From positions 23,735 to 87,734 of the forward strand of contig JAAYZX010000007.1 of assembly GCA_012514635.1 (NCBI GenBank): 64,000 nt of DNA. Direction: 5' to 3'. Shown here in pieces: positions 5,274 through 45,263 of the stretch. Made by a program: the position numbers and the translations under genes. The notes under the pieces are model-generated. The model was given only the letters and a program-made list of their open reading frames with translations, searched no databases and was not told the DNA's origin. Position 1 is the stretch's first letter. Every line of letters begins with the position of its first letter. This DNA is from Actinomycetota bacterium (lineage in GTDB: Bacteria; Actinomycetota; Thermoleophilia; RBG-16-64-13).

Positions 5274-5461
5274 GGCTATCTCCCTTCCCTAATGGTTCGC
5301 GGAGGATATAAAGTGGTCCACGGCGTCAGCATACATAAAAATAAAATAAAAAACTAGGACTTAATAGACAATCTGTCATAAAGGCCACCAGACGGCAGAG
5401 ACGCGCAGGCTGTGTGCCCGATTGCGGTTGGTTGTAGAATGAACGCGGCAGATGAGGCCGA

Positions 5462-5498
5462 CCTTTAAGCGCGTCCAGAGAGGCCGGAAGGGAGCCGC
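5462..5498 (+). promoter_or_regulatory. PyrR-binding box overlapping the pyrB RBS, with an upstream extended -10 (TGTAGAAT at 5436-5443)
   Basis: CCTTTAAGCGCGTCCAGAGAGGCCGGAAGGGAGCC matches the PyrR binding-loop consensus (R)UCCAGAGAGGCYGGNAAGG. It ends 3 nt before the ATG at 5502. Confidence 0.6.
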
Positions 5499-5501
5499 AC
5501 C

Positions 5502-6419
5502 ATGCATCTCATATCTATCGACGATCTGTCCGTAGCCGATATCAAAGCTCTATTTCAGCTCAGTGATGGCTTTTTGGAAGTCGCCGCGCGCCCTATCAAG
5601 AAGGTGCCCACCCTGCGGGGCCGCACGCAGGTCAATATGTTCTTCGAGCCCAGCACCCGAACTCAGGCATCTTTCGAGATCGCCGGCAAACGTCTTTCGG
5701 CCGACGTCATAAATATTAAGGGATCATCTTCGGCCGTGGCCAAGGGCGAAAGCCTGAAAGACACCATCCTGACACTGGAGAGCTATCGGCCGGACATTAT
5801 TGTCATACGGCATGCGCAGGTGGGAGCTTCGCGCATGGCCACACGTTACACCAAGGCATCGGTCATCAACGCCGGTGATGGTACGGGCGAACATCCTACG
5901 CAGTGCCTGCTCGATCTCTACAGTCTGCGTCGCACCTATGGGGCCCTCAAAGGACTCAAGGTGGCAATAGTAGGTGATGTCGTCAGCAGTCGTGTGGCCC
6001 GCTCCAACATATTCGGGTTCCGCAAGATGGGAATCGAGGTGCGTCTGGTGGGACCGCCCACGCTCATGCCGCCCGGCATCGAATGCTGGGACGTTCCCGT
6101 CCACTATGATCTGGAAGCGCTTAGAGACGTAGACGTCATCTATCTTCTACGCATGCAACTGGAGCGGGTGCAGGGGGGGCTGGTGGCTGTGCCCAGCCTG
6201 CGCGAGTATAGCCGAGTCTGGGGTCTGGATCCCTATAGGCTGCAACCGGGGCAGCGAGTCATGCACCCCGGACCCATCAATCGCGGAGTGGAAATGACCG
6301 GAGACCTTGCCGACTGTGAGCAGAGCCTCATCCTCCACCAGGTGGAGTCGGGCCTGGCCGTGCGTATGGCCATCCTCTACCAAGCGTTGGCGCCGCAGCT
6401 GGAAGAGGAGGCGGCGTAG
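5502..6419 (+). CDS. pyrB: Aspartate carbamoyltransferase catalytic subunit
   Basis: STRTQASFE, HPTQCLLD, HPGP motifs. 305 aa. Confidence 0.92.
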   Translation: MHLISIDDLSVADIKALFQLSDGFLEVAARPIKKVPTLRGRTQVNMFFEPSTRTQASFEIAGKRLSADVINIKGSSSAVAKGESLKDTILTLESYRPDIIVIRHAQVGASRMATRYTKASVINAGDGTGEHPTQCLLDLYSLRRTYGALKGLKVAIVGDVVSSRVARSNIFGFRKMGIEVRLVGPPTLMPPGIECWDVPVHYDLEALRDVDVIYLLRMQLERVQGGLVAVPSLREYSRVWGLDPYRLQPGQRVMHPGPINRGVEMTGDLADCEQSLILHQVESGLAVRMAILYQALAPQLEEEAA

Positions 6420-6421
6420 AG

Positions 6422-6640
6422 TCAGTTCATTCCGGGGGCCACGTAACCCGTGTCCTTGCGTTGGTGGGCCAGGCGCGGTCGGAGCGCCTGTTCCTTGATC
6501 ATGGCAGCCGGCTCATGCGGGTCGGCAAGCATGCAGTAGTAATCCGGGCCGTCCTTGATCTTCAGGACCACACACTTTTCCTCGAGCTCTACATCTTCGA
6601 TAGTGGAAAGCGGTACCACGTCCGGTATGTCGGTGCCCAT
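6422..6640 (-). CDS. Small hypothetical protein (72 aa) convergent with pyrB
   Basis: GGAGGAG RBS 4 nt upstream of the ATG at 6640 on the minus strand. The sequence MGTDIPDVVPLSTIEDVELEEKCVVLKIKDGPDYYCM is not low-complexity. No family recognised. Confidence 0.35.
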   Translation of the reverse strand: MGTDIPDVVPLSTIEDVELEEKCVVLKIKDGPDYYCMLADPHEPAAMIKEQALRPRLAHQRKDTGYVAPGMN

Positions 6641-6806
6641 GCCGCTCCTCCTTCCAGGTGTACGGCATCGTCTGCGCAGCACCCTTCCGGCATGATAAAG
6701 AAACCGCAGCAACTCTATACCCATTCAGAAGTGAGAAGAACACGGGTGCCCAGTATCCGGCGCGCCACGTTTGCGGGTACGCCTGCCCCGCGCTAAGATG
6801 AGACTG

Positions 6807-6842
6807 CCTTTAATCGGATCTCGTGAGACCGAAAGGAACCCC
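6807..6842 (+). promoter_or_regulatory. PyrR-binding box overlapping the pyrC RBS (possible promoter TTTGCG-18-TAAGAT upstream)
   Basis: CCTTTAATCGGATCTCGTGAGACCGAAAGGAACCCC is near-identical to the boxes before pyrB and carB. It ends 2 nt before the ATG at 6845. Confidence 0.55.
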
Positions 6843-6844
6843 GG

Positions 6845-8263
6845 ATGATCTCACCCACTTCCGGCCCCGCGCTACGCTTGGCGTGTCGGTCGCTCCCGCA
6901 AGAGCGCCTACTCCTCCCCTCCGTTCATCTGTTCGATCCTGCGCACCACGTGGACCGTATCGCCGATCTGCTCATCGAAGGCGGGACTATTGCGAAGATG
7001 GGTGACGGAATGGCGGTTCCCAGCGGTGTGGAGATCCTTAACGAATTCCGAGGATGCTGGGTGTTTCCAGGGTTTGTGGACATGCACACACACCTGCGCA
7101 CGCCCGGACAGGAGTACAAGGAAGATGTGGTCAGCGCCTCCAGGGCGGCGGCGGCGGGAGGTTTCGTAGCCGTAGTGGGCATGGCCAACACCGATCCTCC
7201 GGTGGATGTGGGTCCACTGGCTTCGTGGGTACTCGACCAGGCGGCGGTGGGCTCCGAGGTGCTGGTGGGCCAAGTAGGCGCTGTCAGCCACGGGGTTCAG
7301 GGTGAACACATGGCTGAGTTGAGAGAGTTATGCGAGGCGGGTGTCGCGGCCCTCTCCGACGACGGCCGGCCGGTGAACAACGCCGATCTTCTATTGCAGG
7401 CACTCCGCTATCTGCGGGGTACGGGTAGACCTGTACTGCTGCATCTGGAAGATCGTTCCCTATCGGCCACCGGCGTGATGCACGAGGGGCGTTGGAGCGC
7501 GCGTCTGGGTTTGCGCGGTATCCCAACGGCCGCCGAGACGGGACCTTTGGCGAGAGATTTGGAGATCGTCGCTTACGCCGCGCGCGAGGAAGAGAGACAG
7601 ACGGATGAAGGCCACGAGCGGTCCAATGGTGGCGGAGAAGGCAGCGGTAGGCCTTTGGTTCACTTTCAGCACCTGTCCTGTGCAGAGAGCGTTGGTCTCA
7701 TCCGTGCTGCCAAGGGTCAAGGTCTTCCCATCTCGTGCGAAGTGACACCTCACCATCTTGTGCTCACAGACGAGGCGGTGCAGAGCTTCGATCAGAACCT
7801 GAAAATAAACCCGCCCCTACGTTGCGAGGAAGCCCGTCGTGCCCTGGTGGCGGCTCTGGCCGATGGGACCATAGACTGCGTAGGCACTGATCACGCGCCT
7901 CACGCACCGCACGAGAAGGAAGTGCCGTTTGCGGATGCATTGTTTGGCACGGTGGGTCTGGAGACGGCCTTCGCCGTGCTCTATGGGACGCTGGTTGTAC
8001 CGGGAGATCTATCGTTGGACCGGCTCATCGATGCCATGTCGACAACTCCCAGTCGCGTGCTGGGGATGGAAGCGCCCCGGCTGGAAGTGGGTGCGCCTGC
8101 CCACCTCTGCGTGGTGGATCTTGATGAGGAGTGGACTGTGACCACGGCCGACCTGATGGGGAAGTGTCGTAACTCGGCGTTTTTGGGTCGTAGAGTGCAG
8201 GGACGCGTTGTTCTGACCGTGGTCGCCGGGGCCCGACGTTTCTCTCGCGAACGCAAGGAGTAG
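6845..8263 (+). CDS. pyrC: Dihydroorotase
   Basis: FVDMHTHLRTPG metal-binding motif, DHAPH motif. About 22-aa low-complexity insertion (REEERQTDEGHERSNGGGEGSG) relative to canonical DHOases. Confidence 0.88.
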   Translation: MISPTSGPALRLACRSLPQERLLLPSVHLFDPAHHVDRIADLLIEGGTIAKMGDGMAVPSGVEILNEFRGCWVFPGFVDMHTHLRTPGQEYKEDVVSASRAAAAGGFVAVVGMANTDPPVDVGPLASWVLDQAAVGSEVLVGQVGAVSHGVQGEHMAELRELCEAGVAALSDDGRPVNNADLLLQALRYLRGTGRPVLLHLEDRSLSATGVMHEGRWSARLGLRGIPTAAETGPLARDLEIVAYAAREEERQTDEGHERSNGGGEGSGRPLVHFQHLSCAESVGLIRAAKGQGLPISCEVTPHHLVLTDEAVQSFDQNLKINPPLRCEEARRALVAALADGTIDCVGTDHAPHAPHEKEVPFADALFGTVGLETAFAVLYGTLVVPGDLSLDRLIDAMSTTPSRVLGMEAPRLEVGAPAHLCVVDLDEEWTVTTADLMGKCRNSAFLGRRVQGRVVLTVVAGARRFSRERKE

Positions 8264-8267
8264 GGTC

Positions 8268-9473
8268 GTGTATAGAAGCGATGTCCCGGGTTACGTTGTT
8301 TTGGAGGACGGTACGGCCTTTCTGGGCTTCGGTTTTGGGGCCGTGGGGAAGGCCTTCGGTGAGATGGTTTTCAACACCGGGATGACCGGGTATCAGGAGA
8401 TGGTGACCGATCCTTCCTATCACGGGCAGATAATTACGTTCACCTATCCCATGATCGGCAACCACGGGGTGGGACGGTGGCTCATGGAATCCAGCGGTCC
8501 TAAAGTCGGAGCTGTTGTGGTACGCGAGGCCAAGAACACCAACTACGATCGCACCTGCCCCGAGGCTTGGATAGACTGGCTCTCTGCCAACGGTGTAGTG
8601 GGCGTGGGAGGTGTCGACACTAGGGCGCTGGTCGGGCGTGTTCGCAGACTGGGCGCCATGACTGCGTGCGTAGCTGCCGGCCACGAGTTCAGCGTAAACA
8701 AGCTTCTCGAGGAGACACGTGGTTTCCCGGGTCTATCAGGGCGTGATCTTGTCCAGGATCTTACCTGCTCGGCACCGTATGAAGCTCAGGCTGAGGAGCT
8801 GTTCCCCGACGGCCCTCCCCCGGATTTGGATGGGCGTCGGTACCACGTGGTGGCTTTCGACTACGGCATCAAATACTCCATCCTGCGACGGCTGTTGGCG
8901 GCGGGCTGCCGTGTGACCGTAGTACCTGCCGGATACACGGCGGATGCCGTGCTTGCCCTGAAACCTCAGGGTATTCTGCTTTCCAATGGACCGGGTGACC
9001 CGGCCCCTTTAACATATGCCGTGCACGTCATTCGCAACCTTGTAGGAGTCGTTCCTATCTTTGGGATAGGTCTGGGTCATCAACTGCTTTCTCTGGCCGT
9101 TGGATTAGGAACCTTCAAGTTAAAAGCAGGGCATCGAGGTTTGAACCATCCCGTTAAGAATTACCCTAGAGACTCCATCGAAATCACCAGCCAGAACCAC
9201 GGTTTTGCGGTGGAGCCACCGCCCGTAGTGGCTCAGGTTCTTGCGCGAGACGGTGATCTTTCGGCCATTCCCGCTGAGGTTCTGTGGATGGATTCCGCTT
9301 ATGGTCCGGTACGGGTGACGCACCTCAGCCTGAATGACGGCACGGTAGAGGGATTGGAGTTGCCCGACGTTGCCGTCTTGAGTGTACAGAACCAGCCCGA
9401 GGCCGGACCCGGGCCTCATGATGGTCTCTATATGTTTCAGCGCTTCATTGAACTGATGGAACGGGGCGTGTAG
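8268..9473 (+). CDS. carA: Carbamoyl-phosphate synthase small (glutaminase) subunit
   Basis: N-terminal CPSase small-chain domain (GMTGYQE). Class I GATase catalytic triad context (GIGLGHQLL). GTG start with GGAGTAGGG RBS. Confidence 0.9.
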   Translation: MYRSDVPGYVVLEDGTAFLGFGFGAVGKAFGEMVFNTGMTGYQEMVTDPSYHGQIITFTYPMIGNHGVGRWLMESSGPKVGAVVVREAKNTNYDRTCPEAWIDWLSANGVVGVGGVDTRALVGRVRRLGAMTACVAAGHEFSVNKLLEETRGFPGLSGRDLVQDLTCSAPYEAQAEELFPDGPPPDLDGRRYHVVAFDYGIKYSILRRLLAAGCRVTVVPAGYTADAVLALKPQGILLSNGPGDPAPLTYAVHVIRNLVGVVPIFGIGLGHQLLSLAVGLGTFKLKAGHRGLNHPVKNYPRDSIEITSQNHGFAVEPPPVVAQVLARDGDLSAIPAEVLWMDSAYGPVRVTHLSLNDGTVEGLELPDVAVLSVQNQPEAGPGPHDGLYMFQRFIELMERGV

Positions 9474-9517
9474 AGGGTGGGGCGGCACGAATCCGTGATT
9501 AATTTGCGAGGAGTGAC

Positions 9518-9979
9518 ATGATCCACGTGGGAGAGAAGGCGCCGCTGTTCAAAGCGGAGGGCACGACAGGAATGATTGATCTGGGGGAGATGTTGGAGAG
9601 TGGACCGGTTGTCCTCTACTTCTTCCCAAAGGCCAACACCCCCGGCTGAACCATCGAAGCGGTTGAGTTCAACCGTCTATTGGACGATTTCGCAGAGCTG
9701 GGCGTGCGGGTGATCGGGATGTCTGTTGATTCGTTGAAAACACAGCAGAATTTTGCAGCCAAGCATGATCTGCGCTTCCCGTTGATAGGGGATAAAGAAC
9801 GGGTGGTGAGCGCCCGATACTTGGTGCTGAAATCTCCAACAGGGAGCACGGAGCGCGACACTGTGGTGATCGGACGCGACGGGATTGTGGTATTGGCTTA
9901 TCAACAAGTCAAGGCGGCGGGTCATGCGGCCCGCGTTCTGCAGGATGTGAAGGCTGCGCGCGCGGCCGGACGGCTGTAG
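9518..9979 (+). CDS. Selenocysteine-containing peroxiredoxin (Bcp/PrxQ-type AhpC/TSA family). In-frame TGA at 9647-9649 replaces the peroxidatic Cys.
   Basis: GAGGAG RBS 4 nt before the ATG at 9518. Translation gives ...[20 protein letters not shown].... This is the universal Prx motif P-x3-T-x2-C with the Cys codon as TGA. The same frame continues into the track ORF 9680..9979. A SECIS-like hairpin lies 10 nt downstream of the TGA. Confidence 0.7.
9660..9675 (+). promoter_or_regulatory. Candidate bacterial SECIS stem-loop (CGGTTG-AGTT-CAACCG; GU in the apical loop) starting 10 nt 3' of the UGA
   Basis: Inverted repeat seen directly. Spacing and loop GU resemble the fdhF-type bacterial SECIS. 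Confidence 0.45.
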
Positions 9980-9992
9980 CCGTCCGGCCGCG
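9961..9992 (+). terminator. Perfect 14-bp-stem hairpin (CGCGGCCGGACGGC-TGTA-GCCGTCCGGCCGCG) whose loop contains the Prx stop codon
   Basis: Exact inverted repeat. No clear U-tract follows, so this is a stabiliser or pause element rather than a classic terminator. Confidence 0.4.
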
Positions 9993-10083
9993 GCGAATGG
10001 ACATATGAGCGGGTACCGGCCGCGGGCGCTGAAGGCGCGCCGCGCGGCCGGTGGAGGAATACGACGTCTCCGGAGGTTCCCTG

Positions 10084-11691
10084 ATGAGCAGATGGGGTCG
10101 CATCGCACTGGTGATTGTCTGCGTGCTCTGCCTCGTGGTGACGGTGGGATGTGGTAGCCGGGAGGCTACCATGGATCAGCCGGTCCTTGATTCCGGAGCC
10201 ATCCGAGGCGTTCACACGGATGGTGTGTGGTCCTATCTCGGCATACCGTATGCTGCGTCACCCTTGGGGGAGCTGCGTTGGAGGCCTGCCGAGCCGGTAG
10301 AATCTTGGAAAGGTGTGCGCGTCTGCGACGCGTACGGACCCTCGTGTCCTCAGGAAGTCGGTGCCGTATCGATGGGGCCGCTGGGAGTGGGTGAGACAAG
10401 TGAAGACTGCCTCTACCTCAACGCGTGGTCTCCGGCAACAGACCCTGCGGACCGGCTTCCGGTCATGGTTTGGCTTCACGGTGGATCATTCGTGAGCGGA
10501 TCTGCGTCCATGGGATTGTACAACGGTGAGAATCTGGCGCGGTTGGGCGGGGTGGTGGTGATCGGCGTCAATTATCGTCTGGGTCCGTTGGGGTTTCTTG
10601 CCCACCCGGCTCTGAGCGCCGAGTCTCCCGACCGGGTTTCGGGAAACTATGGGCTAATGGACCAGGTGAGTGCTCTCGAATGGGTGCAGCGCAACGTCGC
10701 CTGTCTGGGGGGAGATCCCGAGCGGGTGACCGTGTTCGGAGAATCGGCAGGGGCTATGAGTATTCTCCACCTCATGGTGATGCCTCGAGCTGAGGGGCTG
10801 TTCCACCGTGCCATCCTGCAGAGCGCAGTCTTGTTGGAAGAGGGGTTTGGCGGACTGACCGGCGTCGATCTGGCCACTGCTGAGACCGCGGGGGCGGAAT
10901 TGATCTTGCGGCTGGGTGTGGGCAGGGACGATCCGGCCGCTATGCGTTCCGTCTCGCCGGAAGAGTTGTTGGCTGCGACTTCAGCGTTACCCACAGATTT
11001 TCTGAGTGACGGACTCTCCCTGGCACCGGTGGTGGACGGCGTGGTGGTACCGTTGTCTGTGTCACGTGCCTTTGCGGCAGGGATGCAGCACGAGGTGGCG
11101 TTGATCCTAGGCTCCAATGCCGATGAGGGCAACACGTTCCTTTCGTGGATGGAGGGGATGGAGGAGGAGAATTACTGCGCGTGGGCGAGAGGGCTCTTTG
11201 GACCTTGGGCCGATGAGGTGCTGGCCATGTACCCGTGTGGGGATGCGGAACGCAACATTTCAAGCATCAGTCGCATGTTGACGGAGTTGGGTTTTGCAGC
11301 AACTGCGCGCTACGTGACCGAGTCACAGGTTAGGACCAAAGAGTCTCCGGTCTATCTATACGAGTTCACGCGCGTACCACTCCAGATTGCTCTTCCCGGG
11401 GCTCCGCAGGGGGCCTTCCATGGTCTGGAGCTACCTTATGTGTTTGGGCAGGCGGCGCTGTTCGGGGTGGTCGACCCCGTTGATTTGGCGCTGTCGGAGC
11501 GCATTATGGAGATGTGGACCCGATTTGCAGCGACGGGTGATCCCAACCCGCCCGGAGATGAGCTGTGGCCGCGTTACACGGCGGCCACCGCCCACTACCT
11601 CGAACTGGGAGATAAGATAGTGGTAGGAAGTCGGCTGTATGAAGAGGCGTACGAGCTTTCCTGCCGCATTCGTGAGGCGGGTTTGCAGTGA
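10084..11691 (+). CDS. Carboxylesterase type B (para-nitrobenzyl esterase family), probable lipoprotein
   Basis: VWLHGGSFVSGS oxyanion-hole region and GESAGAMS nucleophile elbow. Lipobox ...VTVGC near the N-terminus. GGAGG RBS 7 nt before the ATG at 10084. Confidence 0.8.
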   Translation: MSRWGRIALVIVCVLCLVVTVGCGSREATMDQPVLDSGAIRGVHTDGVWSYLGIPYAASPLGELRWRPAEPVESWKGVRVCDAYGPSCPQEVGAVSMGPLGVGETSEDCLYLNAWSPATDPADRLPVMVWLHGGSFVSGSASMGLYNGENLARLGGVVVIGVNYRLGPLGFLAHPALSAESPDRVSGNYGLMDQVSALEWVQRNVACLGGDPERVTVFGESAGAMSILHLMVMPRAEGLFHRAILQSAVLLEEGFGGLTGVDLATAETAGAELILRLGVGRDDPAAMRSVSPEELLAATSALPTDFLSDGLSLAPVVDGVVVPLSVSRAFAAGMQHEVALILGSNADEGNTFLSWMEGMEEENYCAWARGLFGPWADEVLAMYPCGDAERNISSISRMLTELGFAATARYVTESQVRTKESPVYLYEFTRVPLQIALPGAPQGAFHGLELPYVFGQAALFGVVDPVDLALSERIMEMWTRFAATGDPNPPGDELWPRYTAATAHYLELGDKIVVGSRLYEEAYELSCRIREAGLQ

Positions 11692-11821
11692 GCAGCGATT
11701 AGGGCGGATGCTCAGTCGTCCAATGGAAGGGACGTTCAAAACGGCAGGAGCGTAGCAGAAGGGTGGTTCATGGCCGACTTCGACTTCCGGGGGACATGAT
11801 TCAGGGGAGGTGGCGACCGAC

Positions 11822-13492
11822 ATGAGTGCCGAACAGGAGGACTTCAAGATATCCGGACGCATCGTGGACGTAGTGGCGGGAGAGATCTTCCCCGGCACTG
11901 TGGAAGTTGTCCAGGGTCGCATAGCCGACATTCAGCGCGAGACCTCCGTTGGATCGGTGGGATATCAAGGACCCTTAGCCGATCGTTTCATCATGCCCGG
12001 TTTCGTCGATGCCCACGTACACGTGGAGAGTTCCATGCTCACCCCCGCGCAGTTCGCGCGACTGGCGGTGCGGCAGGGTACCGTGGCTGCTGTGAGCGAC
12101 CCCCACGAGATCGCCAACGTGCTGGGTGTTCCCGGTGTGGAGTTCATGCTGCGTGATGGAGCGGCGGCTCCGTTCACTTTCGCCTTCGGTGCCCCGTCTT
12201 GCGTGCCCGCTACACCCTTTGAATCATCGGGAGCGTATCTGGGACCGGAGGAGGTGGACGCACTCCTAGCTCGGGATGACATCTATTATCTGAGCGAGAT
12301 GATGAACTTCCCCGGGGTGATTCACGGCGATCCAGAGGTCGCAGCTAAGATTGCTGCGGCCAAGCGACACGGTAAGCCCATCGACGGCCATGCGCCGGGG
12401 GTGCGCGGCGAAGAACTGGTGGCATATGTAAACGCCGGCATCTCCACGGATCACGAGAGCCTCAGTTACGCGGAGGCTGAGGAGAAGATTCGGCTGGGGA
12501 TGAAGATCCTGATTCGCGATGGTTCGGCTGCTCATGAGTTTGACCTACTCTACCCGCTGATGCAGTCGTATCCGGAACAGTGCATGCTCTGCAGCGACGA
12601 CAAACATCCCCAGCACCTGGTCAAGGGACACATCAATGTCCTGGCCGCCAGGGCGGTGGCGGCGGGGATAGATCCGCTCACGGTCATCCGATGTGCCTGT
12701 CTGAATCCGGTGCGTCACTACGGTCTGGATGTGGGGTTGCTTCAGCCGGGCGATCCGGCGGATTTCATCGTTGTGGCCGACCTAGAAGACTTTGATGCCA
12801 TCGGTACATATGTCAAGGGACGGCTGGTGTCTGCCGACGGCACGCCGCTGTTTGCCGCCGACTGTGCTGAGCGCCCCAATCGCTTTGCCGCGCGCGAGCA
12901 GCGGGCGGAGGTCTTCGCAGTGACGGCGCGCCCGGGCCGGATCAACGTGATCGAGGCGCTGGACGGTCAGTTGGTGACGCGCAAATTGGTGGTGACACCG
13001 ACTGTGCGTAACGGGCAGGTGGTATCCGATACCGATCGCGACATCCTCAAAATCGTGGTGCTCAACCGTTATCAGGAGGCTCCTCCGGCAGTCGCCTTCA
13101 TCCGCAATGTGGGGTTGCAACGAGGAGCGATGGCCTCTTCAGTGGCGCACGACTCCCACAACATCGTGGCCGTGGGAACTTCCGACGAGGAATTAGCAGC
13201 GGCGGTCAACGAGGTCATTCGCAATCGGGGCGGCTTGGCAGTTGCCGTACAAGAGAATGTGCGTTCGTTGCCTCTTCCGATAGCGGGTCTCATGAGCCCA
13301 CTCGACGGCCTCGATGTGGCGGAGATTTACGATGCCCTGGATCGCGCAGCTAAGGACTTGGGATCTAGGTTATCAGCGCCCTTCATGACACTATCGTTTA
13401 TGGCTTTGTTGGTAATCCCCAGTCTCAAGATAAGTGATGTAGGCCTGTTCAACGCTGAGGCGTTCAAAGGTGTCAATCTATTTGTCGATTGA
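11822..13492 (+). CDS. ade: Adenine deaminase
   Basis: GFVDAHVHVESS metal-binding motif, DGHAPG, and length about 557 aa are typical of adenine deaminase (amidohydrolase superfamily). An alternative GTG start lies at 11810. Confidence 0.85.
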   Translation: MSAEQEDFKISGRIVDVVAGEIFPGTVEVVQGRIADIQRETSVGSVGYQGPLADRFIMPGFVDAHVHVESSMLTPAQFARLAVRQGTVAAVSDPHEIANVLGVPGVEFMLRDGAAAPFTFAFGAPSCVPATPFESSGAYLGPEEVDALLARDDIYYLSEMMNFPGVIHGDPEVAAKIAAAKRHGKPIDGHAPGVRGEELVAYVNAGISTDHESLSYAEAEEKIRLGMKILIRDGSAAHEFDLLYPLMQSYPEQCMLCSDDKHPQHLVKGHINVLAARAVAAGIDPLTVIRCACLNPVRHYGLDVGLLQPGDPADFIVVADLEDFDAIGTYVKGRLVSADGTPLFAADCAERPNRFAAREQRAEVFAVTARPGRINVIEALDGQLVTRKLVVTPTVRNGQVVSDTDRDILKIVVLNRYQEAPPAVAFIRNVGLQRGAMASSVAHDSHNIVAVGTSDEELAAAVNEVIRNRGGLAVAVQENVRSLPLPIAGLMSPLDGLDVAEIYDALDRAAKDLGSRLSAPFMTLSFMALLVIPSLKISDVGLFNAEAFKGVNLFVD

Positions 13493-13518
13493 CTCGGGGG
13501 TGATGGCGGGTTCACTTC

Positions 13519-14205: not shown

Positions 14206-14281
14206 GTGTGAATGGTATCAGCGTTCGGGCACCTTTGGTCTTGGACGACAAATGGCGTTGTCCCTTAGCGAAGGGGATGGC

Positions 14282-15028: not shown

Positions 15029-15147
15029 TGTTCTCGAGTCTGGGGGCGCGGCGGCCCTTGGGTCAGAATGCCCGTGTCGTCTGGGAAGAAGAGCCACGGG
15101 CTGTGCCGGCCGGGAAGTGAGAAGTCGGCGGGTGGAAGGTGGACGCA

Positions 15148-18522: not shown

Positions 18523-18550
18523 GAGGTAGTTGTAGCGCTGTAGGAACTCG

Positions 18551-33812: not shown

Positions 33813-33822
33813 GAGGATCAGG

Positions 33823-34721: not shown

Positions 34722-34787
34722 GCCGTGGATGATCAGCAGGTGGCCTGGAGGGTCTTTTGTTCTCATCTATAGAAGAGGGCGGAGATT

Positions 34788-35603: not shown

Positions 35604-35625
35604 GACTGCGTGTCTGCGCAAACGC

Positions 35626-36378: not shown

Positions 36379-36576
36379 GTCAGACCTTCTATTGTTCGGT
36401 AGTCGCAACGGTTCGGCAGTCGCGACGTTACCTTAACACCTTCCTCGTTCTGCCGAATAGCTGCTTCCTTCTCGCAGTGATGAGTAAGTCGTTGGTATCC
36501 TACGTGAGTCCTACGTCGGTCTCCCGCGAGGGGGCCGGAGATACTGGCTCAACTTACTAGAAGAGGGAGTGAGCGC

Positions 36577-37257: not shown

Positions 37258-37351
37258 CGTGGCCGGTAGGAGGGAGTCGTCGAGAGGGGAATATCAATGA
37301 TAGGCGCACGACGGCCCATGCAGATGGGCACGGCATAGAGGAGGAGCGTTC

Positions 37352-37930: not shown

Positions 37931-37938
37931 GTCTTCCC

Positions 37939-38565
37939 TTAGTGGGTGATGAGCGTTGTGCGGGTCATGCGTACAGTCGCCCGCATAAGGTGTGTGAAGC
38001 TCTTGGTGTGAAGACCGGCCGGATTGAATGCGCGTATCATGACCCAGGTTCCCAAGTTTTCCCAGAAGCCGGCCGTCCAGAAGCGCAGTCCCGGAGAAGG
38101 TTGGTAGCTGAACTCGAATCCAAAGCGGGCGGCCAAAGCAACTGTGCGTTCGGCTTCATCGGCGGTAACGAAACCGAACCTTCCTTCGAAGAGCGCGACG
38201 GCGTCGAGTTCGGCGTGATCGTCTAGGTAGGTTGCCAGATCATGGAGAGAGGAACGCAGCATCTGCCCGAAGGCGACCGCCCAGCGCAGTGTGGCACCTT
38301 CTGCTGCCAGGACCGGGAGATTCTCGTTGACGAAGTGCAATCTGCCAATAGTGTCGCCTGGTTGTACGGTGACGCCGTCGTGGGACGTGAACGGACGAGT
38401 GGCAGGCACCAACTGGAGGCGCAATATGCACTCCGGACGGGCGGAAATATCCAAGATACCCATTCGTTTGCGGAGAAGGCGGTCGCCTGCGGCGACGACG
38501 CGCCGCAGGCCCGCCGGCGCTACTGCGCCGGCGGGCCCAGGCGCGCGTATCTCGTCGCGTCGCAT
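37939..38565 (-). CDS. Hypothetical protein (208 aa), translationally coupled downstream of the aminotransferase gene
   Basis: Its ATG lies 3 nt after the aminotransferase stop on the minus strand. Non-repetitive composition. No family recognised. Confidence 0.4.
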   Translation of the reverse strand: MRRDEIRAPGPAGAVAPAGLRRVVAAGDRLLRKRMGILDISARPECILRLQLVPATRPFTSHDGVTVQPGDTIGRLHFVNENLPVLAAEGATLRWAVAFGQMLRSSLHDLATYLDDHAELDAVALFEGRFGFVTADEAERTVALAARFGFEFSYQPSPGLRFWTAGFWENLGTWVMIRAFNPAGLHTKSFTHLMRATVRMTRTTLITH

Positions 38566-38568
38566 GTT

Positions 38569-39702
38569 TCAGGGGCCGCCGGCGCCGAGATACTCGTCGA
38601 ACGCCGCCAGTGCATCGGGAAAGGTGACGCGACCTAGTCCGATACGCACATGGGAATCTCCGTAGCCGTACACAGTTGAAGGAAGCAACAGAATCGCCGC
38701 CCGATGAGCCGTTTCGTGGCAGAGCTGTGCTGCGCCGACGGCGCAACGCAGCCTCGGGAAGCACACCGTTCCCGCCCGCGGGGGAATCAGCTGAAACAGA
38801 TCAGGCCGCCGTGCGCAGAACTCTGCGAGGAGATGGAGGTTGTAAATGACGCGCTCGCGATGCGCCGGGAGCAGTTGATTGCGCCCGCGCAGGGCCGCCA
38901 GAGCCAGTATCTCCGAGGGGGCTGGTGTACATATGGTGGTGTAGTCCTTGAGGGAGGCACAAATCTGCAGGATGGATGTGTCTCTGCATACCAGCCATCC
39001 CAGGCGCAATCCCGGGAGTCCGTAGGTCTTGGACATGCCGCTCAGCACTATGGCGCCGGACGATAGCTCCACTGCAGACGGGAGTGTGGAGTAGCCGGGT
39101 AGTTCCAGGCCTCGATACATCTCGTCGGAGAAGAGAACGGCGCCGGCACGGCGTGTAAGGTCCACGATACGGCGGAAAGTAGCGGGTGGGGGCAGATAGC
39201 CCGTGGGATTGTGGGGGAAGTTGCAGACCACCAAGCGCGTGGATCCCGGGCGGAGGAGGGTGGAGAGATCTTCCGTTGCGAACCGCCAGCCCTCCTCCTC
39301 GCGTGGACGCCAGAAAGAAAGGTCGGCGCCTAAGCCGCGGGCCACCTCGTAGAGAGACTGGTAGCCGGGAAAAGTAGAGATGACGTGATCTCCGGGCTTC
39401 ACGAGGGCCAACATTGTAAGAAGTATGCCTTCCTCGGGTACCACCACGAGCACGTCGTCGGGAGAAAGGAGAGGTGATTCGGGGGTGTATAGGTTGGCGA
39501 TCTCCTGACGCAGAATCGGCAATCCCTGAGACTCAGTGTAGCCAAGGGTCAGCGATTGCCAGAGAGCGGTGGTCTCCTCGTCGGCCTGTGCAAGCAGTGC
39601 GTGCAGCGAAGGGCCGTCGCAGTCGGAGGCACACAGCAGGTAGCGCGAAGCAAACTCATACCGCGCGAAATACCGCTCCAGTGCAAATGGCGCCAAGTGC
39701 AT
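38569..39702 (-). CDS. PLP-dependent aminotransferase, class I/II fold
   Basis: N-terminal LERYFARYEF, SGMSKTYGLPGLRLGW (PLP-lysine region), NPTG. The track ORF's first 78 codons are probably 5' leader. The true start is the ATG at 39702, preceded 12 nt upstream by TATAAT. Confidence 0.75.
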   Translation of the reverse strand: MHLAPFALERYFARYEFASRYLLCASDCDGPSLHALLAQADEETTALWQSLTLGYTESQGLPILRQEIANLYTPESPLLSPDDVLVVVPEEGILLTMLALVKPGDHVISTFPGYQSLYEVARGLGADLSFWRPREEEGWRFATEDLSTLLRPGSTRLVVCNFPHNPTGYLPPPATFRRIVDLTRRAGAVLFSDEMYRGLELPGYSTLPSAVELSSGAIVLSGMSKTYGLPGLRLGWLVCRDTSILQICASLKDYTTICTPAPSEILALAALRGRNQLLPAHRERVIYNLHLLAEFCARRPDLFQLIPPRAGTVCFPRLRCAVGAAQLCHETAHRAAILLLPSTVYGYGDSHVRIGLGRVTFPDALAAFDEYLGAGGP

Positions 39703-39992
39703 TGGAAATAGATTATAGACGGAATAAGTTCTGTATGTGAGGTTGACGTGCGTATCGGGTAGGGATAACTTTGCGCGACCGCCCACAGTGTGCTTGGACG
39801 TTCTGGTCGGTTGAGTGATCCCGACTGGGAAGAAAGGCCGGACCAACGGAATGCAGCGACTCTGGAGAACAGACGGCGACGGCCGTCTGCGGAGAATGAT
39901 GTCGCGGCGTTCGCCGCAGGCAAATTGGCGGTTCACCCGGGTCGTGCGCCGGTGGAGCCAAGACTACGTCGGCCGCCATCTATTTTGCGCAG

Positions 39993-40367
39993 GTGCGTGC
40001 TCTTCTCAGCAGACATTCAGAAGTGTGTCTCCTCGGTCGTTCGTTGACGGGGGACGTTGTGCAGCGGGCGGGACAAGTATTGATGCTGGCGGCCGGATGG
40101 AACCTGATTGGGATACTGTTGTTGGCGGCCGTAGAAGTGCCGGGATCCGGTTTCAATTTGGAGCACATGGTATTCGAACAGCTCTCTGCATTCGGCACGG
40201 TTGGACTCTCGGCTGATGTGACGTCGGCGCTGTCGGTGGCGGGCAAGATGTGGATAATCGTCACGATGTTCGTTGGAAGGCTGGGACCGCTGACGCTTGC
40301 CACCTGGGTGAAATCAGGGAGAAGACCACGTGTGAAATATCCCGAGGGGAGGGTGATGATTGGATGA
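39993..40367 (+). pseudogene. ktrB: Remnant of K+ transporter membrane subunit ktrB/trkH (C-terminal about 110 aa only)
   Basis: FEQLSAFGTVGLSADVTS...GKMWIIVTMFVGRLGPLTLA is the conserved C-terminal end of TrkH/KtrB. The other 350 aa are absent. Upstream DNA is occupied by an opposite-strand gene. Confidence 0.6.
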
Positions 40368-41053
40368 CTCACAGGAAGCAGTTATGCGTCATTGGGCTGG
40401 GGCAATTCGGCAGCGAGCTGGCCCGCAATCTGGCCGGAGATTGTGAGGTGCTTGCCCTAGATCTCGATGTGCAGCGGGTGGATGAGATAGCAGATTATGT
40501 GCAGCGGGCACTTGTAGTAGATGCCCGCGATCTGGAGGCATTGCGGTCTACGGTTTCAGAAGATTTCGACGAGGCCATAGTGAGCATGGGGGAGGGTCTC
40601 GAAGCGAGCATCCTGTGCACACTGCACCTGAGCCGGTTGGGTGTGCGCAGTATCCGGGCCAAGGCCGTCACCGAAGACCACGCCTCCATCCTGCGCATGG
40701 TTGGCGCTTCCCACGTAATTTTTCCGGAACGGGAAACAGCGCGTCGGGTGGCCGCGCAGATCGTTCGTCCTAATCTGGTGGACTATCTACCTCTCGAAGG
40801 CGAATACCTTGTTCAGGATGTCTTGCTGCCCGACGTGTTTGTGGGTCGGAGCATCGGTGAACTGCGTTTGCGCACCCATTTCAACGCGCTGGTCATGGCC
40901 GTGCGTACGCAGGACGCTCCCTATTTTGTGTTTCTTCCCTCTCCCGACTACGTGTGTTCACAGGGTGATGTATTGGTAATGATTGGACGTAAAGACGACT
41001 TAGATGCTCTAGGAGCCACCCGGTCGTTGCCCCCATTGCAGGAGAAGCGATAG
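40364..41053 (+). CDS. ktrA: K+ uptake regulatory subunit KtrA/TrkA (RCK_N + RCK_C)
   Basis: Rossmann VIGLGQFGSELARNL, then RCK_C. The ATG at 40364 overlaps the end of the ktrB remnant. Confidence 0.8.
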   Translation: MTHRKQLCVIGLGQFGSELARNLAGDCEVLALDLDVQRVDEIADYVQRALVVDARDLEALRSTVSEDFDEAIVSMGEGLEASILCTLHLSRLGVRSIRAKAVTEDHASILRMVGASHVIFPERETARRVAAQIVRPNLVDYLPLEGEYLVQDVLLPDVFVGRSIGELRLRTHFNALVMAVRTQDAPYFVFLPSPDYVCSQGDVLVMIGRKDDLDALGATRSLPPLQEKR

Positions 41054-41070
41054 GCGCCCGAGGGGTATGG

Positions 41071-41922
41071 GTGAGCAGGAAAGTGATAAATGAAGCTCAC
41101 ACGCCGAGATCTGCGGAAGTGTCGGCACGGCGTATTGCTGCGCGCGCAGCCACAGCGGTGACCGGCGCGGTGTTGCTTGCCTATCATCTACCGATACTCG
41201 CGTCTCTCCCGGCGCCTTCTTGGCTGCGGCGCACGTTTGGTGTGCGTGATCGTTTGTCCGGATCTGTCGGAATGGCCCTGACTTTTGATGACGGTCCCGA
41301 TCCGCATGGTACCCCCGCTGTTTTAGAAGCGCTGGAGAGCTTGGGGGTCGTAGCGACATTCTTCTTGGTGGGTGAGAGGGTGGAGCGCTATCCGTCGGTG
41401 GCTCGGGAGATCGTTGCTGCCGGCCATGGTATAGGTGCTCACGGTTACCGCCATCTTCCACAGCCTCTGCTAGCCCCCTGGGCAATTGAGGAAGACTTGG
41501 AGCGGGGCCTGAGCGTTGTGGGAGAGGTGACAGGTCTGTTGCCGTGTCACTTCCGTCCTCCATACGGGATCGTGAGCTTACCGGGACTGGCGTGGGTGAG
41601 GCGGCATGGTGGCTCCACGTGGCTGTGGACTACCGATGGACGCGATTGGGAGCGCAATGCGACCCCCGCGTCCATCGCGGGGAAAATTCTGAGGCGGGCC
41701 GTCGCAGGGGGAGTGATTCTGCTCCACGACGGTGACGAATATGGGACCTGCGGGTCGTGGGAGAACGTGGTGGCCACTCTACCGGTCATTGTGCAGGGAT
41801 TGCAGGCGCGCGGCCTACACATCAGACCGCTATCCGATAACAGGTGTTATGCTTGCAGTGTAAGTTGTGACTCGAGGAGAATGCCGGTCACAACCGGCGG
41901 AATCGAAGTAGCGAGAGATTAA
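41071..41922 (+). CDS. Polysaccharide deacetylase (NodB-domain) family protein with N-terminal TM anchor
   Basis: LTFDDGPDP, HGYRH, LLHDGD motifs. GAGGGG RBS before the GTG at 41071. Confidence 0.75.
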   Translation: MSRKVINEAHTPRSAEVSARRIAARAATAVTGAVLLAYHLPILASLPAPSWLRRTFGVRDRLSGSVGMALTFDDGPDPHGTPAVLEALESLGVVATFFLVGERVERYPSVAREIVAAGHGIGAHGYRHLPQPLLAPWAIEEDLERGLSVVGEVTGLLPCHFRPPYGIVSLPGLAWVRRHGGSTWLWTTDGRDWERNATPASIAGKILRRAVAGGVILLHDGDEYGTCGSWENVVATLPVIVQGLQARGLHIRPLSDNRCYACSVSCDSRRMPVTTGGIEVARD

Positions 41923-42005
41923 ACGGCCGGAAACCGCGCGTTCCTTGACCGGCCGCGGGGTGTGAGAGTGGATGGTTTGTCCACCGCTGGGGGGAGGAAG
42001 GGGCA

Positions 42006-43307
42006 ATGGAAGAGAACGCGGAAGCTTGTGGCCTGGAGGCTACGGAGACGACGCCCTGTGACGAGGCCAAGCTTCTCGATGCGGCATACATGCATTTTCG
42101 GGAGGCGGTCTCACATCTCATGCTTGAGCCGGGGATGGCCGAGCTGCTATGGCGGGGCTCGCGGAGCTATGTAGTGGAATTCCCGGTGCGTATGGACGAC
42201 GGGTCCATCCGGGTTTTCAGCGGTTATCGTGTGCAGCACTCCACGCACCGCGGGCCGGCCAAAGGCGGAATCAGATTTCACCCCAGTGTAGATCTGGACG
42301 AAATCAAGGCATTGGCAGCCCTCATGACCTGGAAGTGCGCCGTCATGAATATTCCGTTCGGGGGCGCCAAGGGCGGAGTACAGTGTGATCCTCCTGAGCT
42401 GTCGTTGGGTGAGTTGGAACGCATCACTCGTCGTTTTACCTGGGAGATTGCGCGTTTTATTGGGCCGGAGAGGGATATCCCGGCTCCAGACGTATTCACC
42501 AACGCTCAAACCATGGCTTGGATCATGGATACGTATTCAATCTTGGCCGGTTACACTGTGCCGGGAGTGGTCACCGGCAAGCCTGTAGATGTGGGTGGTA
42601 GCTTGGGTCGAGAGGCAGCTACGGCGCAGGGGGTCGTCTATGTCATCCGCGAGTCCGCCCACTATTTGGGAATGGATCTCCAAGGCGCCACTGTCGCGGT
42701 ACAAGGTTTCGGCAATGTGGGCTGGCACACCGCACGATTGCTCAGCGAGCTCGGTTGTTTTGTTATTGCTATCAGTGACGTCTTCGGTGGCGTCTACAAC
42801 GACAAGGGACTTGCCGTAAGACGAGATGTCAGAGCCCATCTCGATGCTACCGGTTCCGTGGTCAATGCACCCGGGACGGAATCCATCTCCAACGCGGAGT
42901 TGCTGGAGTTGGACGTGGATATTCTGGTGCCGGCCGCGATTGAAGGGCAGATAACCAAGGACAATGCGACTCGTGTCAAGGCCCGTATCATCGCGGAAGG
43001 TGCGAACGGTCCCACCACGCCGTCGGCCGATGTCATCCTTGCCGAGAAGAACGTATTCGTGGTGCCCGACATCTTGGCCAACGGCGGAGGAGTAACCGTC
43101 TCCTACTTCGAGTGGGTGCAGAACACTCAGAAGCTGTTTTGGCAGGAAGAGGACATCAACTCCCGCCTCGATGCGATCATGACGCGCGCCTTCCGGGACG
43201 TGTTACGCATCGCCGAGAGAGAAAAGGTGAGTATGCGCACTGCCGCGTATATCTTGGCTGTGGAACGCGTGGCTGTGGCCGCCCGTCTGCGGGGGATCTT
43301 CCCCTGA
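42006..43307 (+). CDS. gdh: Glu/Leu/Phe/Val-family NAD(P)-dependent glutamate dehydrogenase
   Basis: KGGIRFHPSV, GGAKGG glycine-rich active-site motifs, GFGNVG Rossmann. GGAGGAAGGGG RBS. Confidence 0.9.
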   Translation: MEENAEACGLEATETTPCDEAKLLDAAYMHFREAVSHLMLEPGMAELLWRGSRSYVVEFPVRMDDGSIRVFSGYRVQHSTHRGPAKGGIRFHPSVDLDEIKALAALMTWKCAVMNIPFGGAKGGVQCDPPELSLGELERITRRFTWEIARFIGPERDIPAPDVFTNAQTMAWIMDTYSILAGYTVPGVVTGKPVDVGGSLGREAATAQGVVYVIRESAHYLGMDLQGATVAVQGFGNVGWHTARLLSELGCFVIAISDVFGGVYNDKGLAVRRDVRAHLDATGSVVNAPGTESISNAELLELDVDILVPAAIEGQITKDNATRVKARIIAEGANGPTTPSADVILAEKNVFVVPDILANGGGVTVSYFEWVQNTQKLFWQEEDINSRLDAIMTRAFRDVLRIAEREKVSMRTAAYILAVERVAVAARLRGIFP

Positions 43308-43356
43308 TCTTCGCCGGGGTCTGAAACCGGCAACCGGATGAGCCTCCTCATCCCGA

Positions 43357-43390
43357 GAGGCGCTCCCGGCGGGGCGCCTCCCTTTCTTTG
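43357..43390. terminator. Rho-independent terminator between convergent gdh and the MFS gene
   Basis: GAGGCGC-TCCCGGCGG-GGCGCCTC followed by CCTTTCTTTG. Confidence 0.55.
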
Positions 43391-43497
43391 AATCAGCCGG
43401 ATGCTACTGTGAGCCTATGAAGGCATTTGTACAGCTGCTGGGTGTAATGGGGTTGGGGGCGGTGCAACTGCCGGCGTATTGGCTGTTGGCTTGATGT

Positions 43498-45033
43498 CTA
43501 CTGTGTAATCCTGCGCGGTCCACGGACCAGGGAAACAGCCGCGGATACCACGGCTATACCCGCGGACAGGAACATGGCGGTACGGTAACCGGAGGCAAAG
43601 GACTGTGTCGCCGTGTGACTTGCCTCTTCACCCAGAAAGAGCACGCGGCCACCGGTGGGTCCCAATCCGGATGCTGTTACGGCACCCAGCAGAGCTACGG
43701 AGATGCTCTGTCCTACCGTTCGCATGGTGCCCAAGAAGCCCGCAGCAAGACTGAGCTGCGAGCGCTCCACCGAGCCCATCACCGAAGAGGTATTGGGCGA
43801 TCCAAACGCTGCCATACCTAGACCTACGGTACCCAGAGCCAGAAGCACCCGCCAGGAGGGACTCGATGCAGACAGGTAGGCCAGCTGAGCCATGCCGGCT
43901 GCCGCCACCAGCATGCCGCCCGTGGCCGGAGCGCGGGAGCCGATCCGATCAGACAACAGCCCAAAGACGGGAGACAGACCGGCCATGAATATGGGCTGAA
44001 TGAGCAGAAGCAGTCCGGTTCGCTGAGGAGAGGCGCCCTGAACCACCTCCAGAAAGATGGCGGTGAACACGGTTACGCCGTAGCCGGCCGCGAAATTCAG
44101 AAGGGCCGCCAGGTTGCCGGCGGCGAATGCCCGATTGTAGCGGACCAACTTCAGATCGAGCATGGGGTTGGCGATTCTGCTCTCGACTGAAATGAAGACG
44201 ATCAGTAGCACCACGGAAGCCGCAAGCAGTCCGATGGTGGGTGGGCTCAACCATCCCCAGAAGGGCACGAAAGTGAGCGGCACCACGAGCGCTACCAAGG
44301 AGGTGGAAAGAAGGGCTGCGCCCGGCCAGTCGATGGCACTGGAAGCGTGGATTTTCTTGGCTTGGGCTGGTGCTACTGCGGCTCTGCCTGTCTGACCATG
44401 TATTACTGCTGCCTTTTGATGTCGGTTCTCGGCGCGCATCAGCAGCCAGCCGTTGGCGAGAGTAATGATGGAGATGGGTACGTTGATGAGGAATATCCAA
44501 CGCCAATCAGTGTGGGTGACGATAACACCGCCCAGCGGAGGACCGGCCATGAGCCCGAGGAAGCCCGCACTGGCGTTCATTCCTATACCGCGACCCCTCT
44601 GTGACGGTGGGAATGCTTCCGTGACGAGAGCTGGAGAGGTGGTAGCGGTAAATGCTGCGCCCAGTCCTTGAAGGCTGCGGGCGATGATAAGGAAGACTCC
44701 GTTGGTGGCAAGAGAGCAGGCCAACGAGAACACGCCAAATAGACCGATACCGATAAGATAGAAGCGCATGCGGCCGTACCGATCGGCCAGACGGCCCAGA
44801 GGTATGAGGAAGACGCTTATGGCCAGTAGATAGGCTGCCTGCACCCATAGGGCCTCCGAGTAGCTGAGGCCCAGTGCAGGGCTGAGCACAGGTAGAGCTA
44901 CGGATACAATGGTGCCGTCGAGCGTGCCCATGAACATGCCCACGGAAGTAAGGCTGAGCACTCGCCAGCGTTGACGACGAAACTCGCTCTCCACTGTGGG
45001 GAACGCGTGCTGGTTCAAGCCCTCCCTTTCCAA
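43498..45033 (-). CDS. MFS transporter, DHA2 (EmrB/QacA-like, 14-TMS) family
   Basis: 511 aa. Many hydrophobic helices. MFS motif GRLADRYGRMR. Confidence 0.85.
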   Translation of the reverse strand: MEREGLNQHAFPTVESEFRRQRWRVLSLTSVGMFMGTLDGTIVSVALPVLSPALGLSYSEALWVQAAYLLAISVFLIPLGRLADRYGRMRFYLIGIGLFGVFSLACSLATNGVFLIIARSLQGLGAAFTATTSPALVTEAFPPSQRGRGIGMNASAGFLGLMAGPPLGGVIVTHTDWRWIFLINVPISIITLANGWLLMRAENRHQKAAVIHGQTGRAAVAPAQAKKIHASSAIDWPGAALLSTSLVALVVPLTFVPFWGWLSPPTIGLLAASVVLLIVFISVESRIANPMLDLKLVRYNRAFAAGNLAALLNFAAGYGVTVFTAIFLEVVQGASPQRTGLLLLIQPIFMAGLSPVFGLLSDRIGSRAPATGGMLVAAAGMAQLAYLSASSPSWRVLLALGTVGLGMAAFGSPNTSSVMGSVERSQLSLAAGFLGTMRTVGQSISVALLGAVTASGLGPTGGRVLFLGEEASHTATQSFASGYRTAMFLSAGIAVVSAAVSLVRGPRRITQ

Positions 45034-45191
45034 CGAGCCGGGTTAAGGCTCCGCTATCGGCTGCTGCGGTCCCGGAGAACGTGAGAAGCACCAATAAGAA
45101 TAGCATCGGTCGGCCAAACATGAAGGATGCAGTCCATACTTCTTCTTAGAGGTCAATATCGCCTTCTCGTGACGCAAAGCGGCCTTTGTGC

Positions 45192-45219
45192 TTGCATGCT
45201 GAGCGCATCGCGGTAGTAT
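45192..45219 (+). promoter_or_regulatory. Candidate sigma-70 promoter for carB (TTGCAT-16-TAGTAT)
   Basis: Hexamers at 45192-45197 and 45214-45219 with a 16-nt spacer, about 45 nt upstream of the carB ATG. Confidence 0.4.
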
Positions 45220-45226
45220 GAGTAGG

Positions 45227-45263
45227 CCTTTAATCGCGTCCAGTGAGACCGAAAGGAACCCCC
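45227..45263 (+). promoter_or_regulatory. PyrR-binding box overlapping the carB RBS
   Basis: CCTTTAATCGCGTCCAGTGAGACCGAAAGGAACCCCC. Near-identical to the boxes at 5462 and 6807. Ends at the ATG at 45264. Confidence 0.6.

Follow-up and report, generated by a model that had tools for sequence, protein, structure and literature searches.

Control of pyrimidine biosynthesis genes by PyrR is known from several bacterial systems, and we compare these here with three copies of a PyrR-type hairpin motif, the boxes, that precede pyrB, pyrC and carB in a 64,000-nucleotide stretch of DNA (hereafter the window; GenBank assembly GCA_012514635.1, contig JAAYZX010000007.1, positions 23,735 to 87,734, forward strand) from an uncultured Actinomycetota lineage. 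The binding loops BL1-BL3 of Bacillus subtilis, represented in Rfam by RF00515, resemble the boxes in their CCUU/AAGG lower stem, UAA bulge, GUC/G(A/G)C stem top and CNGNGA hexaloop, and both systems have several sites per genome and a regulator from the same protein family. However, the window has none of the anti-antiterminator, antiterminator and terminator logic, the upper stem of its hairpins has a single bulged base, and two of the three copies have U-A in place of the U-G pair. The pyr operon of Thermus is reportedly under PyrR control with a translated leader peptide, and its PyrR box is said to lie, as in the window, beside a Shine-Dalgarno sequence and a start codon, where PyrR competes with ribosomes. 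A Thermus-like design, in which the box is followed by an open reading frame (ORF) of ~20 codons, a terminator and then pyrR, is seen in sister genomes, whereas the start that would be occluded in the window is the enzyme gene's own, with no leader ORF or terminator. Mycobacterium smegmatis, likewise a member of the Actinomycetota, reportedly has a single loop before the first gene of a pyrR-pyrB-pyrC-carA-carB-pyrF operon, so that pyrR is autoregulated; this loop, like the boxes, is said to overlap or sequester the ribosome-binding site (RBS) at the level of initiation, without a terminator and presumably in dependence on uridine nucleotides. The window has no such single site ahead of pyrR but three loops, each apparently with its own promoter, before pyrB, pyrC-carA and carB-pyrK-pyrD, with pyrR lacking a loop, and a further difference is that the hairpin is predicted to form almost the whole 5' untranslated region (UTR). 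The title of Fields and Switzer (2007; J Bacteriol 189:6236) names translational repression by PyrR as the mechanism in M. smegmatis.

We propose that these boxes are best explained as elements through which PyrR occludes the ribosome-binding sites of pyrB, pyrC and carB, and we consider this reading likely. The mechanism itself is already known, and the understanding of how PyrR works is left unchanged by what amounts to annotation rather than a new mechanism; the novelty is modest and consists of three separately promoted translational targets, a pyrR gene without a box and an apparent duplication at carB. The analysis provides a confident cis-regulatory annotation for pyrimidine biosynthesis in a lineage that is related to Thermoleophilia and occurs in anaerobic digesters. 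It also suggests that mycobacteria are not alone in RBS occlusion by PyrR, which may be a conserved design in many metagenome-assembled genomes (MAGs), acting on several independent transcripts.

Three PyrR-type hairpins in the window

The 30-nt motif occurs in exactly three copies within the window, all on the + strand:

5462..5491, + strand: putative PyrR binding hairpin 1 (pyrB), CCUUUAAGCGCGUCCAGAGAGGCCGGAAGG / CCTTTAAGCGCGTCCAGAGAGGCCGGAAGG; aligned with RF00515 positions 5-36 (18.2 bits); model R1, 44.9 bits
6807..6836, + strand: putative PyrR binding hairpin 2 (pyrC), CCUUUAAUCGGAUCUCGUGAGACCGAAAGG / CCTTTAATCGGATCTCGTGAGACCGAAAGG; loop UCGUGA, bulge shifted by one base; model R1, 44.5 bits
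45227..45256, + strand: putative PyrR binding hairpin 3 (carB), CCUUUAAUCGCGUCCAGUGAGACCGAAAGG / CCTTTAATCGCGTCCAGTGAGACCGAAAGG; model R1, 52.4 bits; orthologous copies before carB in loci L048 and L076

The recurrence of the motif at 5462, 6807 and 45227 had been noted in a first-pass annotation of this DNA and was confirmed by both pattern and covariance-model scans. The degenerate 30-mer CCTTTAAKCGSRTCYMGWGAGRCCGRAAGG, which was derived from the window copies themselves, matched these three sites and no other when up to three mismatches were allowed, and had no match in 100 shuffles. Model R1, a covariance model built from 33 distinct copies, mostly from other genomes and with the three window copies included as seeds, scored the three sites at 44.5-52.4 bits (E-values 2e-7 to 5e-9), with the next match at 10.3 bits. 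The three boxes are thus a genuine and confirmed observation.

Each hairpin consists of a five-pair lower stem (CCUUU with AAAGG or GAAGG), a 3-nt A-rich bulge, a five-pair upper stem with one bulged base, and a C-N-G-N-G-A hexaloop. The loops read CAGAGA at pyrB, CAGUGA at carB and UCGUGA at pyrC, above an upper stem closed by G-U-C / G-(G/A)-C, as in PyrR-type loops; a purine-rich UAA-type 5' bulge above the CCUU/AAGG lower stem is present in all three copies (CCUUU-AA(G/U)...(G/A)AAGG). The earlier claim that the motif matches the PyrR RNA-binding loop is borne out by the hairpin segment of RF00515, which aligns with the pyrB copy, and by the 33 copies, which conserve and vary the same positions. 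In a 101-nt Rfam search at the pyrB site, nucleotides 5462-5491 aligned with RF00515 positions 5-36 of 115, with paired and loop positions in register (consensus CCUUuUAAaucAGUCCaGaGAGGCUgaaAAGG, window CCUUU-AAGCGCGUCCAGAGAGGC-CGGAAGG; the consensus of the hairpin loop is GUCCaGaGAGGC).

The 3' arm of each hairpin coincides with the Shine-Dalgarno sequence of the gene that follows:

5488..5494, + strand: Shine-Dalgarno sequence of pyrB, AAGGGAG; its first four bases are the 3' arm of the lower stem; 7 nt to the ATG at 5502
6831..6837, + strand: Shine-Dalgarno sequence of pyrC, GAAAGGA; hairpin 3' arm; 7 nt to the ATG at 6845
45251..45257, + strand: Shine-Dalgarno sequence of carB, GAAAGGA; hairpin 3' arm; 6 nt to the ATG at 45264

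All seven bases of GAAAGGA, at pyrC and carB, are complementary to the usual 3' tail of 16S rRNA, and the 6-7 nt between Shine-Dalgarno sequence and start codon are similar to the 7-10 nt found at neighbouring genes. Between the end of the 30-nt hairpin and the ATG lie 10 nt at pyrB, 8 nt at pyrC and 7 nt at carB, and these spacers contain no second Shine-Dalgarno sequence. The motif had earlier been described as ending 0-3 nt before the start codon, which roughly holds for its 36-nt version (4, 2 and 1 nt) and does not for the 30-nt hairpin. The statement that there is no space for a terminator or antiterminator before the ATG stands, given the 7-10 nt gap and the absence of any + strand terminator (a hairpin followed by a U-tract) in 5200-7100 and 44900-45600. 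As in the M. smegmatis type, the putative binding loop includes the Shine-Dalgarno sequence of the cistron that it would regulate, and a terminator is absent.

Candidate promoters were read from the sequence as -10-like hexamers upstream of each box:

5435..5440, + strand: TAGAAT, putative -10 element of the pyrB promoter, 21 nt upstream of the box
6794..6799, + strand: TAAGAT, putative -10 element of the pyrC promoter, 7 nt upstream of the box
45214..45219, + strand: TAGTAT, putative -10 element of the carB promoter, 7 nt upstream of the box

A strict sigma-70 promoter scan near the boxes gave nothing, so that the plausible promoters proposed before each box in the first-pass annotation find support only as TANNNT hexamers, whose position is strongly enriched in relatives: of 87 instances, 66 have a TANNNT that ends 7-9 nt before the box, as against 0.24 expected per position, and a second cluster, 15-21 nt upstream, belongs to the pyrB leaders of relatives. 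In mycobacteria, an ANNNT -10 motif is found between -13 and -6 relative to mapped transcription starts, with no -35 consensus (bioRxiv 10.1101/423392). Based on the hexamer positions and this mycobacterial spacing, transcription of pyrC and carB probably begins 1-2 nt upstream of the hairpin and that of pyrB ~14 nt upstream, and the hairpin would then be essentially the entire 5' UTR.

The presumed trans-acting regulator is encoded beside the boxes:

3773..4381, + strand: pyrR (PyrR/uracil phosphoribosyltransferase); NCBIfam PyrR equivalog, 226.8 bits; likely start ATG 3776

This gene lies 1.1 kb upstream of the pyrB box and has no box of its own in the model R1 scan. Its product matches solved PyrR structures with E-values from 1e-45 to 1e-52 (1.5e-52 for Bacillus caldolyticus PyrR, 1non) and keeps the equivalents of R19, H22, R141, R146 and K152. 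A PyrR protein with RNA-binding residues is thus encoded next to its candidate targets.

Two further candidate sites were rejected. A weak fourth box had been suggested in front of pyrR, yet the model R1 scan with filters off gave no match there at E<=10, and TCCAGAGAGG searched with two mismatches occurred at chance frequency (70 observed against 67 expected); the sequence concerned is simply the Shine-Dalgarno region of pyrR, where the scans gave nothing above chance. The 10.3-bit match, at 51808-51825 on the + strand (ACGGGUUCCGUGAGACCG, E 3.3), abuts the GTG start of coaBC; it comprises the upper stem only, the lower stem being absent, and we judged it a chance match in front of a non-pyr gene.

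In the free pyrC leader (6822-6860, + strand), GUGAGA of the hairpin 3' half can pair with UCUCAC of codons 2-4, and this pairing, which is the predicted minimum-free-energy fold, covers the AUG and competes with the PyrR hairpin.

Conservation of the boxes in related genomes

We scanned one genome per species with the pattern CCTTTAANCGNNTCNNGNGAGNCCGNAAGG, which matched 70 loci where ~0.07 were expected by chance. Nearly all belong to MAGs labelled Thermoleophilia, Gaiellales or Actinomycetota, the others being a few Zixibacteria and Ignavibacteria and one Clostridiales. Model R1 recovered ten extra copies within these loci that the pattern had missed, nine of them before pyrB and one before pyrC. 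The gene downstream of the box is pyrC (39 copies), pyrB (18, plus the 9 found with the model), pyrR (3, plus further copies) or carB (1, plus 1 from metagenomes). All copies are in sense orientation in the leader of a pyrimidine gene, with the start codon usually 7-8 nt further on.

Across the 33 distinct copies, free variation is confined to position 8, the bulged base 11 and loop positions 16 and 18, whereas C15, G17, G19 and A20 never change; the Rfam consensus writes the same two loop positions in lower case. The model structure accommodates 98.9% of the cells of the alignment as pairs, compared with at most 60% when the partners are slid. Pair 13-22 is the only one that changes (U-A 23, U-G 12, C-G 3), and its U-G variants argue for selection on the RNA of the strand that carries the box.

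The related loci fall into two arrangements. Architecture A, to which the window belongs, reads pyrR [box] pyrB [box] pyrC carA and occurs at more than 20 related loci, where no carB follows carA within the stretch examined. Architecture B reads [box] pyrR pyrB pyrC carA carB, and its leader contains the box, GGGGTG-ATG and an ORF of ~20 codons (MTLPYRDDGDGGLFYARIQT) that includes a strong hairpin followed by U6. This terminator has a free energy of -20.4 kcal/mol (z -4.1); the ATG of pyrR comes right after the U-tract, and the leader ORF overlaps the pyrR start. From its sequence, architecture B is read as a leader-peptide-coupled attenuator:

L016, 725-850, + strand: single box on the Shine-Dalgarno sequence of the leader ORF; likewise in L041, L051, L052, L063, L040, L070, L019, L020, L026, L034 and L053 (Thermoleophilia MAGs)

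The same 30-nt box variant is found outside the Actinomycetota, before pyrR or pyrB, in L012, L033, L042, L056 and L072 (Zixibacteria, Ignavibacteria) and in L024 (Clostridiales). The spacers at these loci are longer, and the regulatory design is probably different.

A PyrB protein 100% identical to that of the window was found only on short metagenome contigs (ERZ747220, ERZ27268596, ERZ27268613 and JGI 3300009652), and the closest of the species representatives, whose PyrC is 70-73% identical, is a Thermoleophilia MAG recovered from an anaerobic membrane bioreactor.

Proposed mechanism and alternative explanations

In the model that we favour, the boxes would be binding hairpins for the PyrR encoded at 3773-4381. 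The free hairpin being only marginally stable, ribosomes would open it and the genes would be translated; when uridine nucleotides are plentiful, PyrR carrying uridine mono- or triphosphate would bind and lock the hairpin, which would hide the Shine-Dalgarno sequence and sterically exclude the 30S subunit. Repression would extend to pyrB, to pyrC, with carA if coupled, and to carB, with pyrK and pyrD if coupled. The earlier suggestion of RBS occlusion rather than Bacillus-style attenuation is supported computationally by the present analysis. In line with such a switch, the PyrR-register hairpin has a computed energy of only -5.4 to -5.6 kcal/mol, and 0.8-6.6% of the free-RNA ensemble adopts it; a marginal stability combined with a low occupancy is what a protein-dependent switch would need.

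Several observations weigh against this reading. In RNA folding, which had been suggested as a check, the hairpins fold no better than shuffled sequence (z -0.5 to -1.65, not significant). The pyrC copy deviates at the first loop position, where U replaces C. The RF00515 score of the pyrB copy is 18.2 bits, with an E-value of 1.1 even in a 101-nt search, against a gathering score of 54, and at E<=10 this model missed both the carB copy (101-nt search) and the pyrC copy (1.7-kb search). The score falls below the threshold because only 32 of the 115 model positions exist here, the remainder being attenuator context. Covariation is minimal, since one pair shows changes in both partners and an equally high score was reached by 37 of 500 shuffles; this weakness is explained by an element that is nearly invariant, as expected of a protein-recognition site. 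The placement of the transcription starts derives solely from the position of the -10 hexamer. Finally, the window PyrR has A in place of T18 and Q in place of R27, although both positions also vary in Thermus PyrR and relatives. T18 and R27 are said to matter in B. subtilis and to belong to a list of important PyrR residues.

These two substitutions, together with the two copies that the Rfam model left unreported, could indicate that the resemblance to PyrR loops is partial and that the hairpin is recognised by another RNA-binding protein or by a small ligand. We find this highly improbable, as the targets across ~70 loci are exclusively pyrimidine biosynthesis genes and pyrR, and pyrR is always nearby. 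Moreover, the loop with the stem top and the purine bulge, both reportedly crucial for PyrR binding, are both conserved. Still less credence is due to attenuation of the Bacillus type, in which PyrR binding would block an antiterminator and a downstream intrinsic terminator would stop transcription. It is the best-known mode of PyrR action and the one modelled by RF00515, and relatives with the box ahead of pyrR do carry a terminator; but the gap between hairpin and ATG is only 7-10 nt, no + strand hairpin with a U-tract lies near the three sites, and the alignment is limited to positions 5-36 of the 115-position Rfam model. As the terminator is plain in the relatives with architecture B, an attenuator would have been visible in the window leaders if present, and this explanation is largely refuted by the sequence already.

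A motif acting as DNA, that is, a transcription-factor operator covering +1 to +30 of three promoters, would account for its position directly downstream of the -10 hexamers and for the inverted repeat formed by its outer arms (CCTTT...AAAGG). Nonetheless, the sequence and structure match an RNA family, the orientation is always sense, the motif centre is not palindromic, the U-G variants (pairs 13-22 and 5-26) would become A-C mismatches if the opposite strand were read, and the reverse strand scores 9.4 bits compared with 44-52 for the forward strand, so that we give an operator hardly any weight. PyrR might instead bind the hairpins with its main effect on the lifetime of the mRNA, either by protecting the 5' end from RNases or by speeding decay when the message is untranslated. 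The -10 hexamers would put the start 1-2 nt before the hairpin for pyrC, carB and most relatives, and 5'-terminal stem-loops are known as stabilisers. Yet a transcript stabilised by bound PyrR would be expressed more strongly at high pyrimidine levels, so that the effect would have the wrong sign; every pyrB, pyrC and carB copy keeps the overlap with the Shine-Dalgarno sequence, which points to translation as the target; and if untranslated mRNA decayed faster, this would follow from occlusion and not compete with it as an explanation. An effect mainly on mRNA lifetime is therefore unlikely in our view, and occlusion of the RBS by PyrR is retained as the preferred explanation.

The curated Rfam model misses all three sites at its threshold: with gathering thresholds over the whole window, no PyrR element reached 54 bits and the sole match was a thiamine pyrophosphate (TPP) riboswitch. 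A short covariance model restricted to the hairpin, such as R1, would recover such sites in genome annotation.

Origin of the carB box

Outside the window, the genome scan found a box before carB only in locus L048 (AnMBR.bin144), which is 87% DNA-identical to the window at the carB start, and a scan of metagenomes for carB boxes added one true case (L076) and three chance matches. The carriers of a carB box seen in these scans, namely the window, L048 and L076, make up a narrow lineage. In the window, the carB and pyrC boxes share the rare T8; in AnMBR.bin144, the carB and pyrC 30-mers are identical, both with the rare GA at positions 11-12. The -10 regions upstream of the carB and pyrC boxes also align. 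We interpret the carB leader as a duplicate of the promoter, box and Shine-Dalgarno cassette of pyrC, made after carB had left carA.

This raises the idea of a portable cassette of ~60 nt, made up of the -10 element, a start at the hairpin, the PyrR hairpin with its Shine-Dalgarno sequence and the ATG, that would be copied whenever the pyr operon breaks, with PyrR serving purely as a multi-target translational repressor without self-control. We advance it tentatively, at somewhat under even chances. If it is true, a whole translational switch would be spreading by duplication.

Target operons and neighbouring genes

The genes behind the three boxes are as follows:

5502-6419, + strand: pyrB, aspartate carbamoyltransferase; NCBIfam NF002032, 353 bits, aligned from residue 2
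6845-8263, + strand: pyrC, dihydroorotase (NCBIfam); in an operon with carA behind box 2
8268-9473, + strand: carA, small subunit of carbamoyl-phosphate synthase (NCBIfam); follows pyrC behind box 2
45264-48635, + strand: carB (NCBIfam); first gene of the operon behind box 3
48660-49556, + strand: pyrK (NCBIfam); in the operon behind box 3
49493-50515 (ORF), + strand: pyrD (Pfam DHO_dh); the true start is probably later; in the operon behind box 3

The start codons on which the spacings depend appear sound, as the PyrB and CarB profiles align from residues 1-2 and relatives share the N-termini MHLISIDD (PyrB) and MPRRTDI (CarB). The first-pass annotation had ascribed MRPKGTP N-termini of predicted ORFs to the shared motif. 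They arise because a GTG inside the motif is read as a start, which holds for the carB ORF at 45243 (an in-frame GTG extension) and for an out-of-frame ORF of 60 amino acids at 6823 in front of pyrC, but not at pyrB, where the artefact is absent. With the boxes annotated, the true start codons are fixed, and both the MRPKGTP extension of carB and the ORF at 6823 can be set aside as artefacts.

Between pyrR and pyrB, 4395-4994 (+ strand) holds a gene resembling class I S-adenosylmethionine-dependent methyltransferases, with weak NCBIfam matches only; it begins 14 nt past the pyrR stop codon and is probably co-transcribed with pyrR. Between pyrB and pyrC, a small antisense gene (6422-6640, - strand; 72 amino acids on metagenome contigs, at most 100 as an ORF) had no Pfam match, and its presence explains why pyrC needs its own promoter and box. 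PyrC carries an N-terminal extension of ~20 residues relative to dihydroorotase profiles and a charged, glycine-rich insertion of ~30 residues at residues ~243-271 (...EEERQTDEGHERSNGGGEGSGRP...).

The carA and carB genes are ~36 kb apart (9473-45227), separated by unrelated genes that include a carboxylesterase, a glutamate dehydrogenase and a major facilitator superfamily (MFS) efflux pump. Pfam matches downstream of pyrK identified pyrD, an mIHF-like protein, gmk and coaBC, so that carB heads the series carB-pyrK-pyrD-mIHF-gmk-rpoZ-coaBC; the order carB ... mIHF-gmk-rpoZ-coaBC is typical of actinobacteria. Neither pyrE nor pyrF is in the window. The TPP riboswitch (RF00059; 61583-61686, + strand; 76.3 bits, E 2.9e-13) lies upstream of an ORF at 61873-63012 that encodes a solute-binding protein of the ATP-binding cassette (ABC) type (SBP_bac_6/8), presumably part of a transporter for thiamine or a precursor.

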